Shown in pieces: positions 4,670 to 35,072 of a stretch of DNA of 64,000 nucleotides. This DNA comes from Eledone cirrhosa (Eukaryota), in assembly GCA_964016885.1 (NCBI GenBank), contig OZ024741.1, positions 63,178,001-63,242,000 on the forward strand, read 5' to 3'. The translations under genes and the position numbers were made by a program. The number at the start of each line of letters is the position of its first letter. The first letter of the stretch is position 1. The notes under the pieces were generated by a model. The model saw nothing but the letters and a program-made list of their open reading frames with translations. It was not told where the DNA came from and did not search any database.

Positions 4670-4768
4670 TTCTTGGTGAGGAGGGTGATTTGGACGTCCT
4701 GCAGGACTAAAAACAAAACCTGTCAAAGGGCAAAGGAGCTCTTAAGAGTCAATGGCCATCCAAAATCA
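4670..4768 (+). repeat. Dispersed repeat, also at about 12410-12545 (-) and 26455-26585 (+)
   Basis: Shared gagggtgatt(t)tggac(a/g)(c/t)cctgcaggac...aaagggc...aagagtcaa(c/t)ggcc sequence. Confidence 0.75.
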
Positions 4769-4870
4769 CATACATACATACACACATACATGCATACATA
4801 CATACATACATACATACATACATACATACATACATACATACATACATACATACATACATACATACATACA

Positions 4871-6865
4871 TTATTATCAGAGCCATAGAGAAGCTGTCTT
4901 CTTCTTGGGATACTATCCTAAGGTTAAAAACAGAGAAGGAGGATTCTATTTTCACTGATAAAATAAAATATCGCAGGTGTATATTTCAGGGAGACAGTCT
5001 CTTGCTGCTCAAGAAATGTGAAGGATACATCATTGGATCACAGGAGGACAGAAATACGAACCTAACCCATAATTTCTTTGTGGGTGATCTGAAACTCTAT
5101 GCCAAGAACATGGATGGGAGGAATAAAAATCTTGACCTGGTTACAACGTTCTCAAAGGATATAGGAATGGAGTTTGGCCAAGATAAATGCTCATATCTGA
5201 CTGTAAAGCGGGGAAAAACAACAACCCCATCTAGCAACATTGTCATCAATGGCCTAACTGTTTCACCGATAGCTGAGGAGGACTGCTACAGATACCTGGG
5301 GATAGATGAGAACATATCCTATAATGGTATCTCTAATAAGGAACTCGTAACCAGAGAATACTACACCCGATTAAGAAGGATCTGGTCATCGGAACTCTCT
5401 GTGCAAATCAAAACAGTGGCTCACAATGTGTTTGTTGTGCCTGTCCTAACACCAACGTTTGGAATACTCAATTGGACGATAGACGAAATCCGAGCAGTTG
5501 ATGTTGGAACTCGAAAAATACTGAACAACACCGGAAACTTCCACATCAACAGTGACATAGACCGCCTTTACTTGAAACGTAAGCAGGGAGGCAGAGGCCT
5601 AACATCAGTCCAGACAACATTTGAATGTCGCATATCTCTCCGACAACATCTACGAACCTCGAAGCGTAGGAGCCCGCTTCTCAAGCAAGTCTATCTGCAT
5701 GAAACGGATAAGATCATGAGAGTTGGGAAGGAACTCCTTGAGAGATATTCCCTGTGTGATAAATAAAAACTCACACCCAGGGATGTTTCCAGCAGTATCG
5801 CAGTGAATCCATGGATGAAAAACTGCATGCCTATCAGCAAAAAATCATGCATGGATATGTTGCCAGAAAGCTCCAGAGTGAGAGTAGTATAGATAAGGAA
5901 AGTAGTCTCTCTTGGACCAACAACCGCTATATTGGCTCCCACTTTGAAGGATACGCTTTTGCAATCCAAGAACAGGAGATTAGCACGAAATACCTGATTC
6001 ACAAAAGAGATAGGGATGCAGGCAAAACACCTAGATGTGATAACAAGCGCAGACTCTGCAGAACTAACATCGTGGATATCACCCATGTCATCAGCAGCTG
6101 TCCAAAGATGTCGTCGCGGTACTATCTACCTATGAGGCATGATGTAGTGGCCAAAACACTGTACAATGCAGTTCGTAAAAAAGATAGCCCCGATAATAAA
6201 CACATTAAAAGCTACAACAATGTGGAAGACATCTATGTACATAATATGAAAGAGTACTGGTGGAATGTTCCAGTAAAGACCCCAATAAAATGCAGGCATA
6301 ACAGACCAGATATTATGATATGGGACAGGGAGAAGAAAACATGCACAGTAGTGGAAATTAGCTGCCCAGCAGATGCCAATATAATATCAAAGATTAGTGA
6401 AAAGGAGAATATTTATGCAGAACTGATGAGAAATCTGGAGATACTCCACCCTGATTACACCTTCAGATTTATGCCTGTGATTATTGGGGCACTGGGATAT
6501 GTTAGTAACTGCCTCAATACAAATTTTGAGAAGCTAGACTTCACAGGAAGAACACAACTAGTTAGGAAACTACAAGTACAATCCATTAATGGAACAGTAA
6601 AAATATGTAAAACATTCCAAAAATGTTGCATCTAATAACTGCATATACACATGTACAGATACAAAGCATATACACATGCACACATACAACTCAAATCATA
6701 AACATCAACACATACAATAACATCCATATCTACACATGCATGCATAGATACATATCTACCTAGTTGATGTTGTGTAAATTCCAATGAGAGAGTCTTGAGT
6801 CTATGTTAGAAACCGACTCTCTCTCTCTATTGGTAAAACTTTGTGAAATTATAAAACCAGAAGAA
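4871..6865 (+). mobile_element. 5'-truncated, frameshifted R4/Dong-like non-LTR retrotransposon (RT + CCHC + restriction-like endonuclease)
   Basis: IFQGDSL (about 4982), FFVGDLKLYAK (decayed xDD motif), YRYLG, GGRGL, zinc knuckle ...LC...THVISSC, RHD, RPDI, VEISCP, PVIIGALG. Flanked on both sides by (TACA)n. Confidence 0.9.
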
Positions 6866-13049: not shown

Positions 13050-13116
<67 letters not shown>

Positions 13117-13121
<5 letters not shown>

Positions 13122-13773
13122 TAGGATATGTGTTCCTTCACGCACAAGGCGCTAAGGTACGCATGTATTGTCCAACCAAAATGCCAGTGTGGTTCAATGG
13201 CAGGTTAATAAATTAACGAGCCAGAACAAATTTAAACAAGGTTTAGCAAATAATGAAAAAGTTTCAAAATAAATTTTAAAAAAAATTGACTTTACCTACT
13301 ATAGTTACCTTTACCGATCGGTTTCGAATCCCAAAAATAAAACGGAGACCATACGGCCTTCGTTGCAAAGAAAGATTCTCGTCAGAAGGTTCTTTTCATT
13401 CAAAGAGTATAAAATTCCTGAATTTAAATTACAGACTAGCGCTATCAAAACTGTTCCCGGGATGAGAGTGGATGATGTAGAAACAGGTTTATCAAGGGCC
13501 GAAGTAAAGATAGAGGCAGATAAACCTGTTTCTACATCATCCACTCTCATCCCGGGAACAGTTTTGATAGCGCTAGTCTGTAATTTAAATTCAGGAATGT
13601 TATATTCTTTGAATGAAAAGAACCTTCTGACGAGAATCTTTCTTTGCAACGAAGGCCGTATGGTCTCCGTTTTATTTTTGGGATTCGAAACCGATCGGTA
13701 AAGGTAACTATAGTAGGTAAAGTCAATTTTTTTTTTATTTATTTTGAAACTTTTTCATTATTTGCTAAACCTT

Positions 13774-13778
<5 letters not shown>
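13117..13778. mobile_element. Fold-back hammerhead element: tail 13117-13232, arms 13233-13493 / 13519-13778
   Basis: Near-perfect inverted repeat of about 260 bp with a 25-bp spacer, bounded by (TA)n. Confidence 0.92.
13622..13705 (+). ncRNA. Type I hammerhead ribozyme (mirror copy 13307-13390, minus)
   Basis: acctt CTGACGA gaatc...gattc GAAA ccgatcgg TA aaggt; intact core, stems I and II paired, palindromic stem III, GUA cleavage triplet. Confidence 0.92.
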
Positions 13779-13816
<38 letters not shown>

Positions 13817-13840
13817 TGTGCGTGTGTATATATATACACA

Positions 13841-14620
13841 CAAGGCTTTTTGCCCATATGGGTTTGTGAGTATTGATTTATTATTTTTTAGATCGTACAG
13901 GCAAACTATATGTATTTGAATTAAGATATTTCATTCTAACGATTTTATTAGTCAATTACAACTAAAACATGTAAATGTTCATCAAATATTAATTTATTCT
14001 GCTCAGAAGCGATTCTTAGAGCTGAAATGATTGTAAATGACCCCATTGAGTGTAAACTCTAAGTTATATTATATTACTGCTCCCTCAGTCGAGTAATCCC
14101 ATATAAACGGCTGTTATTTCTAGCACTATGTGTGGGACGTTAGAGGACTGGAATAAGTTGTGTGCAAAACCTCGTGTATTTTCGCTACGCTAACCAGACC
14201 TTAGATATTTTTCTGAGGTGAGGTTATTTAATTTATCTGGGTACCTATTGATAAACACAGAAAATTAATTAACTCACTACTAATTAATTAATTATTTCAC
14301 TATTATACCATCCTTTGTTAAACATGTTTAAAGTTTGAAGTTCTGACCGATCTGCGGAAAAAGTTTGTATTTTGAAATTTAAACGTGTCTAGGTACCAAG
14401 GCCTTTTGCCCATATGGGTTTGTGAGTATTGATTTATTATTTTTTAGATCGTACAGGCAAACTATATGTATTTGAATTAAGATATTTCATTCTAACGATT
14501 TTATTAGTCAATTGCAACTAAAACATGTAAATGTTTATCAAATATTAATTTATTCTGCTCAGAAGCGATTCTTAGAGCTGAAATGATTGTAAATGACCCC
14601 ATTGAGTGTAAACTCTACGT

Positions 14621-14630
<10 letters not shown>
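13841..14630. repeat. Partial tandem element: about 234-bp direct repeats (13841-14074, 14397-14630), period 556
   Basis: caaggc(t/c)ttttgcccatatggg...gtaaactcta(a/c)gttatattatat occurs twice with few mismatches; ends in (TA)n. Confidence 0.9.
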
Positions 14631-14654
<24 letters not shown>

Positions 14655-14656
<2 letters not shown>

Positions 14657-15225
14657 AAAGTAAAAGTATGTGTTCCTACATGCAAATAATACACATAGGG
14701 AGACAAGTATAGTCCGACCGTATGCAAGTGTGTTTCAATGGCAAGTCAGAACATATAAAATCAATTTATTAACTTGACATTGAACCACATTTGCATACGG
14801 TCGGACTATACTTGTATCCCTATGTGTATTATTTACATGTAGGAACACATACTTTTATTATTATTCTCCCCCAACGGTAGAGAAACCTTTGGTCATTTGA
14901 ACGGCTGATATTTTTTGTAGCGAGAGATTGACCTGTCCTCCTTGCTTTCAGTCTTTGCACACGGTACTAGACAAAATTATTTCATCATTCATTTGTTGGG
15001 TTAGTTTTGTATGGCGCCAGTTTGTATTTTGAACTCGGGAATCTTATATTCTCCGAGAGAGTAAAGCCTTCTGACGAGGATCTCTTTCTCAATGGAAATC
15101 CACTTGGATTTTCTATTTGTTTCGGGATCTGATACCTCGGTAAAGGCACATATAGTAAGTACAGTGAATTTTCTGAAATTTATATTAAAATGTCTTCTTT
15201 ATTTGCTTTCCCTTGATCTTCTATA
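14655..15225. mobile_element. Diverged relative of the 13117 element: inverted tail (14661-14746 / 14772-14857) followed by body and hammerhead 15066-15147 (+)
   Basis: tatgtgttcct tail shared with about 13127. gcctt CTGACGA ggatc...gatct GATA cctcgg TA aaggc (GAAA mutated to GATA). Confidence 0.8.
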
Positions 15226-15686: not shown

Positions 15687-16318
15687 AATTAGAATTGGTG
15701 CTCTGAAATAGCGATATATATATGAATGTATATACAGTGTATTTTGCAATACACTGTATGCTTAATTAAAACCATTTCGAAGACCTTACGCTATTGTTTT
15801 AGAGTAGTGACAGTCTCACTTACTTTAAATTTTCAGCAAACAGGGGAGATAAAGCTGACAGAGCTCTGATTCGCACTTTTTGGTGCTTATCAAAGCTAAC
15901 TACTCCACCTGTTTGCTGAAAATCGTGAATGTTTGATTCTTATAGAATTCTAGTAATAATCAGGAACTGATTATTACTAGAATTCTGATTATATATATCG
16001 GTATTTCAGAGCACCGATTCTAATTTTCAATTTCTGCTTGACCGGCAACCGCTCTGTATAATTAGTTCCGGATTATTACTAGAATTCTATAAGAATCAAA
16101 CATTCCTGATTTTCAGCAAACAGGTGGAGTAGTTAGCTTTGATAAGCACCAAAAAGTGCGAAACAGAACTCTGTCAGCTTTATCTCCCCTGTTTGCTGAA
16201 AATTTAAAGTAAGTGAGACTGTCACTACTCTAAAACAATAGCGTAAGGTCTTCGAAATGGTTTTAATTAAGCATACAGTGTATTGCAAAATACACTGTAT
16301 ATACATTCATATATATAT
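15687..16318. mobile_element. Fold-back element with arms about 15715-15961 / 16071-16318 and a degenerate hammerhead (16135-16179 +)
   Basis: Inverted repeat of about 250 bp. agct TTGATAA gcac..gtgc GAAA cagaactctg TC agct. Solo relative at 37031-37330. Confidence 0.88.
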
Positions 16319-21135: not shown

Positions 21136-21220
<85 letters not shown>

Positions 21221-21224
<4 letters not shown>

Positions 21225-21653
21225 TAAAAGAGAAAACACAGGTAAGCATTAAGAGAAGGATTTTAACCAGGTATTTACGACCGTTTCATTGGTAAGTGCA
21301 ACCTTATATTGCTATACTGAAAATAGAAGCCACTCAATTATAATTGTTGTTCACAGTCCAAATTTTCAAAATAGTGAGTAAGTTACTCTTGAAATAATTC
21401 TTAATATATCGAGAAGAACATTTATTTGGAATTGTATTTACTAGTATAGAGAGAGAGGAATCAGAAGGTGAGGGGACAAACGGAATAGTATAGAGAGAGA
21501 GGAAGGGGGAGGAAGAATTAGGAAGTAGAGTGACAAACTGAGATGGAGGGAGGGGTAGAGGTGGAAGGATTCCTTCATCAGATTTGATTGTAGACTTCAT
21601 GTCGTGGAATGTAGTGAGTTAAAGAGAATTAAATTGATCATAGTGGGAGGGAT

Positions 21654-21744
<91 letters not shown>

Positions 21745-24671
21745 GAGATATAAAGAGATAAATATATATATAAAAAATAAAGATAAAGATAATAATGACA
21801 AAAATAAAAGCAAATAAGGGGCAGAAAGAAGAAAAGAAAAGATAGCCAAAAAGAGGAGGGAAGGAAGGAAGAAAACGAAGAAATAGAAGTGGAATGAAGG
21901 AGAAGAGGGGGATATAGGTATTGGCTTTTGTGGGTGATTAAAAGGGTTTAGATACAACAAGAGGGTATAAAGTCTAAGTATATGCAGTTTGTCAGTTGGT
22001 AGTAAGAGGTTAAGGGTTCGATTTGCACTTGTAGTGCGAAAACTTCTCTTTGAGTCTATGGTTACAATAAATTGATCTTTCGATTTTATTGTTGAGTAAC
22101 TTATTCTTCGAACTCAAGATGTGGAACAGCTCAAGGTCGCATAATCGACAGCTTCTCATACCACTCCGATATGGGGGCGCGTTCGATAATTGTTTCCACT
22201 TCAGAGTGTATTGATGGTTACTTTCCCTCAGTTGCCAGGTCTTGTTTCGAAGGTTAGTTACATAACGATGCTGGGAATGTTTCATTGCGTAACGGTGTGT
22301 ATACCAACGGGCTTTAAATGTATTCCCAGTCGCTCCGATGTAATACCATTTCTAGTTGTCTGATTCCACTGTGCATTGGTAAACCAGGTTAGACTGCATA
22401 CATTCATTATGTAATGGACAGGTTTCAGGTAGGTGGCAGTTACAATTCTTGTCATGGGCAACTTTGGCATTATTGGTGGGCTGCGATGCCTGCACAAGTG
22501 TGTTATGTTTTGTTTGCCTATTAGTGGGTGGTTGTGAATTAGATATTCTGTTGTGTTCAATGGTGATTGTATTGTTATTGTTGTAAATGTGTGTTCTGGT
22601 GTTGTTATGTATCTTTTTAGCGTTAAGCATCTTAATGTGTGCCTCTATATTTGGTGCCGTGGAGTAAGATAGTATAATAGATTTAGTGTTAAGGATTTTG
22701 CTGTATCTATGTGAATTTGGAAAGTGCTTATTTATTATTGTAAAGAAGGTAGAGGGTAGGCTAGCACTAATAGAGGTGTTAAATATGGGGTTATACCAAA
22801 TATATTTTCTACTGCGTGACTTGTTTGATTTCGATGTTGTATTTCTATTTACCGTATACTTTGTAGTTCTATGCATAAGTGCGTGTGTTTGGAGATTTGT
22901 GTTATGCGTGTTCGTGTGCGCTTACGGAGGCTTTCATCTATATATTCTACTCTATCTAAGTGGCCTGCCTTGTCTAATGCGGTATTGTAGTATTATGCAT
23001 GTTATTCGAAGATTTTTCGGTTAGACGAGAGTCGGGAGATCCTAAGGGATATACTGTGTGGAATGGATTTAATTATGGATAGTGGGTGGTTTGAGTTACA
23101 GTTGATGTATGCTAAGTTTTCATTTATCTTGTGAAAAAGTCTTATAAGTCCCGTATTTAGGTTAAGCGTCGCGTCTAGAAAGTTAACTGTTTTAGTGCTA
23201 TACTCATACGTTATGCTAAGGCCTAGTTTCCCGAGGGTCTTTCTAATATTCTTACGGAGTCTTTCTATGCTCTGGTTATTTAGGTTCTTAACTAGGAGAA
23301 GGGCGTCGTCTCTGTAGATTCCACCGTGAAGGTCGCTAAACTCACTTTGTTAACTGTGGGCTATGTAAATACCTACTAAATCTGTGACTTGAGCCGAGTC
23401 GTTAACCCCATCGTGATGTCAAAGTTATTTAATCTATCCTTACGTTCCCAATAGGCGTTTTCAAATTTAATTATTGTTTTCCTAGCAGCTAATACGATTT
23501 TTATCTCGTCGTCTGTTATGTCAGAATTGGCTTTGGCAAATGCTAAGGCTTTATCCAAGGTGTTGGGGAATATAGAGGAGTAATAGTCGTTAATGTCAAA
23601 TTGTATAAATTTAGATACTTCTTTGTGAGCTATATTGTTAAACCACTTAATTGTTTCGGTAGCGTTACCCCATAGTTTAATTACTAGTTTATTCTTCATT
23701 TGTGCTATCACTCTGTCTAATATATGTTTACTAATTTTCCCGATGTCCGATTTGGACGGGCATATAAGTCTAATTGTGGGGTTATAATCAAAATTTACTT
23801 TGTGGTCCTTGAGATTAAATGTGGGGGTACATGGCCGAAGATCCTCCGTTCTGTCGTCTATTCCTAGGTGTTTGACTATATTGTGTGCCTCATTGTTGAT
23901 ATTTATCAGTGCCGCCTCATTAGTTTTTTTGTATTTCCTATGTAATTCCTTCGGTATGAAGCTATTGTATGTATTAACATCCATCGTATACACATTTGAT
24001 GTTTTGTCCGCTTTGACAATAATTCCATTGGTGGTTCCCAGCTTTTTTAGGAATGTATTTATGTCATTCTGGAGTTTATTATTCCTCCGCTTTTCGAATT
24101 TGATATTCATAATCATCTTCAGTAAGTCCTGTTCAAAGGCTTCCAGTTGAGGGTTGGTAGGTGGGTTTTTACACGATTTGAAGCCGTATGTTTCCTTGTT
24201 GTATTCCACGGTGCGACCATTACGTCCTTTGTCGAAATGGAAAGTTTTCCATCTAACTGCGTATAAAGTCGTTTGTTCGCTGTATCATCCCGAGGGTATA
24301 ATCCTTTCTCAGAGGTATAGGAATGTTCTTTATGGACATACCTATGTAATGCTTTTCCATAGTAGTACCGTAGGTTTAGGTGGTTGGTCGACCGATAAGG
24401 AACATGTAGTTAGGGAAGCAAAAAATTGCTTTTTCTGATCCAGTTCGTGGTTATGAAAGCCAGTTTCATGGATGGTTTCAACTTACGGTTAGGGGTAACT
24501 CCACAAGTTTGTAAGGATTCCGATCAATCTTGGAGTATAAAGTATAAAAGAGAAAACACAGGTAAGCATTAAGTGAAGGATTTTATCCAGGTATTTACGA
24601 CCGTTTCATTGGTAAGTGCAACCTTATATTGCTATACTGCAAATAACAGCCACTCAATGATAATTGTTGTT

Positions 24672-24675
<4 letters not shown>
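21221..24675 (-). mobile_element. Near full-length, pseudogenised Penelope-like element (RT + C-terminal GIY-YIG, tentatively Nematis-like) with 135-bp direct terminal repeats
   Basis: Disrupted ORF about 24360 to 22010: SIKNIPIP, KADKT, LKDHK, FDINDYYSSI, FDITMG, IYRDDA, VNFLD, IWYNP, CNC..CPL..C..NLVYQCTV...YYIGATG..FKARW..H, CRLC. Direct repeats 21221-21355 and 24541-24675. Confidence 0.93.
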
Positions 24676-32650: not shown

Positions 32651-33726
32651 CATAAGTTAAACGAATTGGTTGCTGAACACTCACATCTAAATCCACGGGG
32701 GAATCCATTATTAATACATAAAATATTTATATTTAATAAGTTGTGGTTGTTTCTAATTAAACAGTGGTATTTCAAAAAAATATGCTCAGCTACTGAATAA
32801 TTACTGATATTAGATATTGTACTGATATTAGATATAAGAGCTAGAATAAAACCAACCATGTTGTTTCTCGTCCCATTCTCTAGCGTAAATAGAGAGTAGA
32901 GAAATTCAGAGATGTTTAATGAAAGATTGAGTTTGTGTGCGACAGAATGTTCGATTAGTCCCATGTTCGATTCCAATAAGTGCCATATTCAGCAAATGTC
33001 ATTTACCACAGCATTATGTTGATCCATGCTTTGTGTGTGAAATTGTGGAGACGGAAACTGTTTTGGGAAACCTATCGGATGGACGATAGTACCTGTAAAT
33101 CAAAGGGTTTTCCTTATCACACTATATCTCCATGAGAATGACAGTAAAGATACATATGTTTATTTCATGAGCAAGGAACAACTGGACCACTCCCTATCAA
33201 AATCAACATACGGCCATTCTATGTGTGAGATAATGATATGAGCCTAGAAGAATTTTAATTTGGTTAACACGAACACCTCTGAGATATGCTTGAATAGTTA
33301 TATCTTTATTCGGTGAATTAACCGTGGAAGTAATATTTAATTTTTCCAACTTGAAACCCAATTCAAATCAAAAATTCGATTTCCAAGTTTTTTTTCTGCA
33401 ATAATTCACGTTGTGGATAGAAAATAAAGAAATAAAAAAATAATAGAACACATTGTTACAACTTAGTTCAAAATAAATAAATATATAACTGATTTCTAAA
33501 GAACTAAATTCATTTCATATAATTTAATAGTATTCAACTGATCAAATTATAATTCAATTGACCTATTAAGGATAATATGTGATTAGTAGTTTTTTAATCA
33601 TAAAATAGATAATTATAATAATTACTCTATTTATTTTCCTATTATATGTTACAGTACATCTACAAGTCAGTAAGTGATCGTAAAGAGCGAAGTATTTGCA
33701 CGCCTTTCTCATAAATCATATATATA

Positions 33727-35072
33727 TATTAAAATAACAGATTAAAGTTTAAGCAAAGAATCGCTGCTTTCACCCTTAACGGGATCTTCTGAAACTAACA
33801 AAGTCAATCTGTAAACGCAGAACTGGATATTTCAAAAAACGTTGCAACCGGAGGAAGACAGGAAGACGATACTTTGGTTCGTGGTAACGTTCGCTGGCAA
33901 AGAACGGGAAAAAACGAATAATACGTCATTAATAGGAGCGGTGAAAAACAATTACGCGCAAAGACAAAACCACGTTTATGGTATAAAAGAGGTCGTAGAC
34001 TAATGTTCTCTTAGGTGGTGCATAGAGACGTTCTCTGGCAATGAACGAAAAAACGAAGATAATAAGTCATATGTGGAGCGTGGAGAACAATAGCACGCAA
34101 AGACAAAACCACGTACGTATATTTGACTGTTATAGCGTATAATTTTTACATATTTTGGTATTTAGGGTTTGGATATGTGTATACGGGAGTTTTGCGTCCG
34201 CGTGAGTGTGCAGGCTCGTACGTATGGTGGGTGTGTGTATATGTGTACTTCTTGTTTTAGTTGACTTACGTCTCCGAACATTCGTGTATTTATATGTAGG
34301 TATGCGTGTGCGCTTGTTATATACGTATTTATTTACTTATATACGTTTATATAATTATTTGTTTATTTGTACACAAGCATACACACACACACATATTTAT
34401 ATGTGCGTGGTTTTGTATACCCATGGTAAGGTTTTGCGTATGCTTGTGTATGTACGTATCTGTTCGCGTGTATGTATTTATTTGTTTCTATTACTTCTGG
34501 ATTGTATTTATTTACTTTGTTCTTAACTCTGTAGCGGAGATTCATTTGGTCTCCTAGTTAGAATTTTAGTCTACGACTTCCGCTATACCATTTACGTGGT
34601 TTTGTCCTTGCATGCTATCGTTCTCCACGCTCCACATATGACTTATTATCTTCGTTTTTTCGTTCATTGCCAGAGAACGTATCTATGCACCACCTAAGAG
34701 AACATTAGTCTACGACCTCTTTTATACCATAAACGTGGTTTTGTCTTTGCGCGTAATTGTTTTTCACCGCTCCTATTAATGACGTATTATTCGTTTTTTC
34801 CCGTTCTTTGCCAGCGAACGTTACCACGAACCAAAGTATCGTCTTCCTGTCTTCCTCCGGTTGCAACGTTTTTTGAAATATCCAGTTCTGCGTTTACAGA
34901 TTGACTTTGTTAGTTTCAGAAGATCCCGTTAAGGGTGAAAGCAGCGATTCTTTGTTTAAACTTTAATCTGTTATTTTAATAAATATTTGCTCTACGGTTC
35001 TTATATATTTGATATATATTTTCCTTATCGAGCCCTCTTTGGATTTTAGTCTTCAATGTTATTCTTATTACT
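33727..35072. mobile_element. Large fold-back element: arms 33727-34115 / 34593-34981, 477-bp spacer, tail to about 35072
   Basis: 389-bp near-identical inverted arms with an internal subrepeat of about 140 bp. Variant hammerheads at 33746-33796 (-) and 34912-34962 (+). Confidence 0.92.

Follow-up and report, generated by a model that had tools for sequence, protein, structure and literature searches.

In Penelope-like elements (PLEs), hammerhead ribozymes whose helix III is palindromic show weak cleavage and act as dimers (PMC4209133; PMC6765202). Studied in vitro, a purified PLE protein nicked AT-rich DNA on both strands and extended them, with reverse transcription beginning at two sites within the RNA that set the limits of the tail; for this element, the only one tested in this way, insertion did not depend on cleavage (PMC11167929). 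PLEs with inverted arms, with tails, and with internal deletions have been described as well (PMC8557442; PMC3846280). Retrozymes were proposed to be non-autonomous PLEs, a link that is based on co-occurrence and pLTR homology and leaves the mechanism of mobilisation open (bioRxiv 10.64898/2026.07.22.740005).

Two inserts of one short non-coding repeat were observed at 13118-13776 (insert 1) and 14654-15221 (insert 2) of the 64-kb stretch of DNA that was analysed as a whole (the window; Table 1). Both consist of head-to-head arms flanked by (TA)n, with a spacer of 25 nt in each, and TA runs adjoin all four insert ends, the shortest run being TATATATA. In both, one arm stops at a position termed site A and the opposite arm approximately 117 nt beyond, at site B. 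In case of insert 1, the plus arm ends at site A, 76 nt past the predicted cut, and the minus arm continues to site B, 194 nt past the predicted cut; hairpins are predicted in its tail, the end of the tail is AC-rich, and the spacer aligns weakly as a 5' continuation of the minus arm. In case of insert 2, the minus arm consists of the tail alone, and the plus arm of 462 nt (tail, middle, and body) ends at site A, 79 nt past the predicted cut. Its tail segment is 68% identical to the tail of insert 1. At the 5' end of its inverted arm, approximately 12 letters resemble, with a 16-nt gap, the link found past site A in insert 1; these letters are absent from the plus arm.

The motif TATGTGTTCCT is found at 13127 and 14667 and as reverse complement at 14841, so that the tail, read on the ribozyme strand, stands after the body in copy 1 (minus arm) and before the body in copy 2 (plus arm). 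The sequence-only reading had already noticed the tail of insert 1 upstream of the body in the 14772-15225 copy, which is correct; since insert 2 is two-armed, the permutation is real but belongs to one arm only. That both inserts are head-to-head palindromes and that copy 2 begins at 14654 with an inverted tail arm are additions to that reading. All three frames of the insert 2 plus arm are closed, no ORF of at least 150 aa overlaps either insert, and neither insert carries the RT plus GIY-YIG ORF of an autonomous PLE. A 234-nt direct repeat (13841-14074 and 14397-14630, 98% identical) lies between the inserts; it has no similarity to either of them and was excluded.

Table 1. Features of the two inserts and of related loci in the window (positions refer to the whole stretch)
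Feature	Position	Strand	Remarks
(TA)n run, left target flank of insert 1	13050-13117
Tail of insert 1, site A to site B	13118-13234	minus	117 nt; minus arm only
Minus arm body of insert 1	13235-13493	minus	254/259 columns identical to plus arm
Type I hammerhead, insert 1 minus arm	13307-13390	minus	CUGACGA from 13385, GAAA, predicted cut after 13312
Spacer between insert 1 arms	13494-13518	minus	25 nt
Plus arm of insert 1	13519-13776	plus	ends directly on (TA)n
Hairpin 5' of helix I, insert 1	13590-13613	plus	9 pairs, 2 two-sided changes versus copy 2
Type I hammerhead, insert 1 plus arm	13622-13705	plus	predicted cut after 13700
(TA)18, right target flank of insert 1	13777-13812
(TA)n run, left target flank of insert 2	14621-14653
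Inverted tail arm of insert 2	14654-14758	minus	ends at site B on (TA)n
Tail segment opening insert 2 plus arm	14760-14858	plus	81/86 columns identical to inverted arm
Non-coding middle, tail to body, insert 2	14859-15002	plus	144 nt
Body of insert 2	15003-15221	plus	about 70% identity to insert 1; ends at site A on TATATATA
Type I hammerhead, insert 2	15066-15147	plus	53-nt helix II domain 15078-15130
Broken near full-length frameshifted PLE	21216-24675	minus	RWK, DKT, YRDD, CxCX5C, YIG
Palindromic (TA)n inserts	starts 15585, 16603, 33729, 36184, 36787, 41573, 49896
Palindromic (TA)n inserts, further	starts 53053, 57140, 58108, 58538, 59168, 62565
Other hammerhead motifs	2852, 3229, 16701/16947, 29984, 51462/51659
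Other hammerhead motifs, further	58205/58317, 58631/58758, 62658/63762

Both arms of insert 1 contain the core boxes CUGANGA, GAAA, and NUH between three helices, with a helix I of 5 bp, a 53-nt helix II domain (13634-13686), and the palindromic helix III ACCGATCGGT. The features of the PLE dimer type, i.e., a short palindromic helix III, a helix I of 4-5 bp, and a helix II of 7-8 bp, were all observed. Insert 2 reads GATA instead of GAAA in the core (change at 15133), and its helix III is not palindromic (change at 15137). Seven public sequencing runs were listed for 14772-15220, none of them recorded as RNA, which says nothing about expression, and four of the seven were aligned at 80% likeness: contigs of organism A (X1), contigs of organism B (X4), and two RAD-seq runs of organism A (X5 and X6). 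The family reads GAAA at 15131-15134 at approximately 95-100% in all four runs, position 15133 being A in 6065 of 6075 depth (X1), 322 of 322 (X4), 210 of 221 reads (X5), and 194 of 197 reads (X6), and position 15137 is G in 12404 of 12439 depth (X1), 214 of 225 reads (X5), and 185 of 197 reads (X6). By the reads of other copies both changes are private to insert 2, which is thus a decayed copy. The palindrome CCGCGG accounts for approximately 94-100% of the depth in the three runs of organism A and for 65% in organism B, where loose ends read CCATGG. Helix III is therefore palindromic in three sequence forms (CCGATCGG, CCGCGG, and CCATGG), with predicted self-duplexes of -11 to -17 kcal/mol (copy 1 -16.6, majority motif -14.1); the predicted value for copy 2 as it stands is -4.5 kcal/mol.

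In both copies the predicted free fold is more stable than the hammerhead-constrained fold (-21.9 versus -19.8 and -26.7 versus -19.8 kcal/mol). When the window was scanned with a simple descriptor of type I hammerheads, 16 hits were obtained, one of them doubtful, versus 4 in 20 Markov shuffles; 3 of the 16 fall in inserts 1 and 2. Rfam yielded no match at the gathering score in the window, and its hammerhead models gave no match over either insert at E up to 10; sub-threshold matches to Rfam miRNA families were rejected as artefacts that the palindromes produce by forming hairpins. Between the predicted cut and site A (13701-13776 and 15143-15221), the RNA is predicted to fold as a hairpin. 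Judged from the modelled folds, it is possible that the 3' strand of helix I pairs instead with the CCTT just before site A, which would constitute a switch between a cleavage fold and a priming fold. A conserved GTRAGT 10 nt past the predicted cut resembles a splice donor in its letters and sits within a predicted hairpin.

Stems I and II, as given in the sequence-only reading, were confirmed: ACCTT (13622-13626) pairs with AAGGT (13701-13705) and GAATC (13634) with GATTC (13682-13686) in copy 1, and GCCTT (15066-15070) with AAGGC (15143-15147) and GGATC (15078) with GATCT (15126-15130) in copy 2. Among these 10 stem pairs, two changed on both sides (AU to GC twice), one on one side (GC to GU), and none is broken. 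Under neutral drift at the divergence of the flanks, the probability that all 10 are kept is 0.01-0.02, and 0.001-0.002 if at least two two-sided changes are included. Helix I contributes one two-sided change, and the 7-pair base of helix II one two-sided and two one-sided changes. The compensation proposed in that reading does not extend to the pair that opens helix II, since T makes up approximately 45-76% of the depth at position 15078 in the four runs, which gives U.U and hence no covariation. The flanks are diverged, as it had noted (75% and 68% identity, tail 68%), but less so than the helix II domain itself, whose 53 nt between CUGACGA and GAAA can be aligned gap-free over the two copies and are identical at 29 of 53 positions (55%).

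This domain has a shared predicted fold with a 7-bp base, an internal loop, and an apical hairpin, the latter with two-sided changes as well; conservation does not reach an outer extension of helix II, in which 2-4 pairs are broken. A reciprocal test was applied, in which the structure predicted from one copy was scored on the other (53 nt, 24 changes). One direction kept 14 of 18 pairs with 4 two-sided changes, the other 16 of 18 pairs with 5 such changes. The joint P values are 0.005 and 0.00015 if the changes are distributed at random, and 0.010 and 0.009 if the changed positions are fixed; single measures range from 0.0005 to 0.10, and in two of four tests with fixed positions they are weak (0.10 and 0.056). 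Elsewhere in the repeat the test gave two two-sided changes in the 5' hairpin, three in the tail, and none in the 3' flank, so that structure extends beyond the ribozyme. A structure of 39 pairs, compared between the two plus arms, shows 7 two-sided changes and no broken pair (slid controls 0-1), with P values that are inflated because the structure was chosen with both copies in view. Taken over two lineages and read-level variants, these sequence comparisons support that the RNA structure of the repeat family is under selection, over a wider range than the earlier claim had it: apical, 5', and tail hairpins carry two-sided changes, and all three sequence forms of helix III are palindromes.

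Copies in the sequencing runs repeat the anatomy of the inserts at both ends. Loose ends enter (TA)n behind 14858-14861, corresponding to site B, and behind 15190 plus approximately 20 nt, corresponding to site A. Among the 40 of 156 variants listed, 2 of 22 body variants fall in shared helices, which cover 72 of 218 positions (P approximately 0.01). Pattern scans for relatives gave no match in viral contigs and none in metagenome contigs.

The segment order body, tail, middle, body supports a closed unit of approximately 475-480 nt, assembled in sequence from overlapping pieces only. The body-to-tail joint is given by insert 1 and by three joints in X4, the tail-to-middle joint by insert 2, by record 1 of X1, which spans 14772-14955 with 18 other letters, and by one loose end in X4, and the middle-to-body joint by insert 2. 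A contig of X1 that differs at 14979, 60 letters from its nearer end, probably spans this last joint too, and two forward tail-to-body joints are present in X4. Record 9 of X4 holds body, 89 letters, and tail, which sums to 386 + 89 = 475 nt, and the 20-nt link after site A plus the 459 nt from 14763 to site A give approximately 479 nt; from these sums the length of the unit follows. The value of about 460 nt given previously corresponds to the plus arm 14760-15221. In X1, X5, and X6, the middle is covered in every bin by copies with other letters, with depth pinches near 14907-14936 and 14982-15002; in organism B, depth is zero over 14907-14996. More than 100 reads in each RAD run carry approximately 110 unaligned letters upstream of 15004, and these unlike letters point to other subfamilies with a different or longer upstream part. 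The wrap-around monomer suggested previously holds as to the closed order of segments; a record that spans a whole unit was not found among those listed, nor a head-to-tail dimer or tandem of the unit in the window. Three backward-running joints in X4 fit a tandem and a tailed arm equally.

The tail, the inverted arms, the (TA)n target, and the palindromic helix III are published marks of PLEs. Similar to the hammerheads in the pLTRs of EN+ PLEs (Hydra and Neptune), those of the inserts have a 5-bp helix I, a 7-bp helix II base, and a palindromic helix III (PMC4209133; PMC8557442), and they share with these elements the inverted 5'-truncated arm, the tail at one end, the (TA)n target (Hydra and Naiad), and heavy 5' truncation (PMC8557442). 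Unlike EN+ PLEs, the unit measures approximately 478 nt and lacks an ORF, helix II, 53 nt long in total, is interrupted by an internal loop and bears a further conserved hairpin, and the one-sided tail has 117 nt versus the 30-40 nt in print (PMC8557442). With animal non-LTR retrozymes the family shares, by way of overlapping pieces, a short, self-closing, AT-rich, non-coding unit with one type I hammerhead (PMC7229834), a length within their range of 51-972 bp (PMC7229834; bioRxiv 10.64898/2026.07.22.740005), the proposed PLE origin, and U.U at the base of helix II, as also found in an axolotl family. Retrozymes occur as head-to-tail tandems with at least two hammerheads and as circular RNA (PMC7229834), whereas the inserts are seen in genomic DNA as dispersed, head-to-head copies, and their hammerhead is of the PLE dimer type. 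Two internal RT starts, an AT-rich target of which both strands are cut and extended, and an AC-rich end recall Poseidon_Ac in vitro, an autonomous element whose short tail falls within the start of its ORF, whereas in the inserts A and B lie 117 nt apart in a non-coding RNA and the priming is inferred (PMC11167929). Non-autonomous Chlamys PLEs, e.g., MRC1, are likewise non-coding derivatives that keep the terminal signals, although Naiad and Chlamys are without canonical hammerheads and with N-terminal EN partners (PMC8557442). In the titles and abstract openings that were searched, neither this family nor a 53-nt helix II nor tails of approximately 117 nt were found; subscription papers, Repbase, and Dfam may hold them.

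The fold is conserved through compensatory changes, the inserts have two fixed 3' ends on (TA)n and arms placed head to head, the order of segments is defined, and an ORF is absent; together, these observations lead us to regard the repeat family as a non-autonomous PLE of the non-LTR retrozyme type, copied in trans by a PLE protein into (TA)n, to which we assign a probability of roughly 0.7. In the proposed mechanism, a master copy of more than one unit would be transcribed, and two hammerheads would associate by way of the palindromic helix III and cut in the dimeric state, which would release monomers that are possibly ligated into circles. A PLE RT-GIY-YIG protein would bind the hairpins around sites A and B and nick both strands of the (TA)n target, cDNA synthesis would be primed internally, at site A on one strand and at site B on the other, and joining of the two cDNAs at their far ends would yield a palindrome with a one-sided tail. 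Insert 1 would represent the usual truncated product. In case of insert 2, synthesis of the A-primed arm would have continued past the cut site and covered nearly a whole unit, and since the plus arm crosses the cut site, this would presuppose as template an uncut multimer or a circle rather than a linear cut-to-cut monomer. Both arms of insert 2 stop within approximately 20 nt of site A. In this single case the arm ends fit one turn of a circle, with the A-primed cDNA having stopped approximately 20 nt short of a full turn and the B-primed cDNA at A; a linear multimer on which site B of one unit and site A of the following one served for priming would account for them as well. We regard it as possible, though less likely than not, that insert 2 was left behind by a circular, ribozyme-bearing RNA of approximately 478 nt that a Penelope-type enzyme reverse-transcribed once around.

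The inserts might alternatively be truncated ends (pLTR plus tail) of an autonomous coding PLE, in which case an internal deletion or template jump in one or a few copies, and not a short unit of the whole family, would account for the wrap-around order of insert 2. Most hammerhead palindromes of the window look like such ends, internal microhomology deletions of PLEs are described (PMC3846280), and the summed depth in X1 is approximately 54,000 at 15027-15056 versus 330-2,200 over the middle; a whole-unit record is missing among those listed, and most RAD reads are unlike the repeat upstream of approximately 15004. On the other side, the middle is covered throughout X1, X5, and X6 by copies with other letters, the X1 contig with the difference at 14979 and record 1 reach into it (60 letters to the nearer end and 14772-14955, respectively), X4 has forward tail-to-body joints, and the plus arm is without an open frame, which makes this explanation unlikely. 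Fold-back of a single cDNA, i.e., self-primed second-strand synthesis instead of two primings at A and B, was proposed for the inverted repeats of PLEs (PMC3846280) and would suit the short spacers of 25 nt in both inserts and the fact that the arms of most palindromes stop near the same template position. We judge it to be rather improbable, given the approximately 12 link-like letters in the inverted arm of insert 2 that its plus arm lacks and the purified PLE protein that cleaves and extends both target strands (PMC11167929); fold-back would in any case alter only the cDNA-joining step of the proposed mechanism.

Long inverted arms, TA-rich flanks, and the missing ORF are also found in foldback or MITE-type DNA transposons with long terminal inverted repeats, in which the hammerhead would be a passenger. 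However, the two ends differ by the 117-nt one-sided tail, the inversion point is placed differently in the two inserts, and compensatory changes maintain pairing on one RNA strand within each arm; this explanation is largely refuted and scarcely credible. That the paired changes arose by chance or from a misalignment in a decaying repeat might be argued from the restriction to two lineages and from the choice of the 39-pair structure with both copies in view. Against this, the 53-nt domain is free of gaps, the reciprocal tests are jointly significant, and body variants are few in shared helices (2 of 22, among the 40 of 156 listed, P approximately 0.01), and we consider such a coincidence very unlikely.

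The window is AT-rich and contains 121 tandem-repeat rows, mostly microsatellites, and at least 15 inserts between (TA)n runs with a one-sided tail of 31-137 nt; all five palindromes with a descriptor hit in both arms have the tail on one arm only. These tails mostly exceed the 30-40 nt in print, and a TACTC...GAGT motif is common to several of them and to the coding PLE. The tail is located on the left (minus) arm in 12 of the 15 tailed palindromes (two-sided P 0.035, noticed after the fact), a bias that could reflect the direction of transcription or replication. The broken coding PLE has a duplicated terminal repeat of 140 nt, one copy at each end, that ends on (TA)n; its motifs match the Hydra-clade marks in section 11 of PMC8557442. 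Since Pfam gave no useful family in two PLE fragments and the Atlas comparison RT-like clusters only, the assignment to the Hydra clade rests on these motifs. A blastn search of the unit of the inserts versus the coding PLE and the other hammerhead families of the window gave no hit, and the tail motif of the coding PLE is unlike that of inserts 1 and 2. With this lack of similarity, the coding PLE indicates that PLE machinery acted here, but is not thereby indicated as the partner of the inserts. Its 140-nt repeat holds GAAA-CGGTCG-TA without a CUGANGA box, which, from the sequence, may be a half-core or a variant ribozyme.

At least four other type I hammerhead families occur in the window, with the palindromic helices III TATATA, TATGCA, and TGCGCA; none of them was scored by Rfam at its threshold. 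The hammerheads 51462/51659 form a 197-nt direct tandem. A palindrome at 15761-16271 has ends that are alike and sub-threshold matches to Hammerhead_HH9 at 16125-16194 (plus strand, 25 bits) and 15826-15907 (minus strand), and another at 33722-34986 has 98% identical arms, an internal tandem of approximately 125-140 nt per arm, and a 92-nt tail, but no descriptor hit. On the plus strand, 4711-6635 contains a broken ORF of a non-LTR retrotransposon with a weak match to RVT_1 (E 0.02), the C-terminal region of which may be restriction-enzyme-like (R2/R4 type).

Nothing is overturned by this locus, as there is published precedent for every component. The 53-nt helix II domain and the flanking hairpins are candidate protein-binding signals. 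If insert 2 indeed derives from a circle, it would be direct genomic evidence for animal retrozyme circles inserted by two-site internal priming of a PLE, together with a new hammerhead with a long helix II, a tail three times the described length, and a family present in at least two species. A non-coding unit with the marks of PLEs makes the mechanism of retrozyme mobilisation testable.
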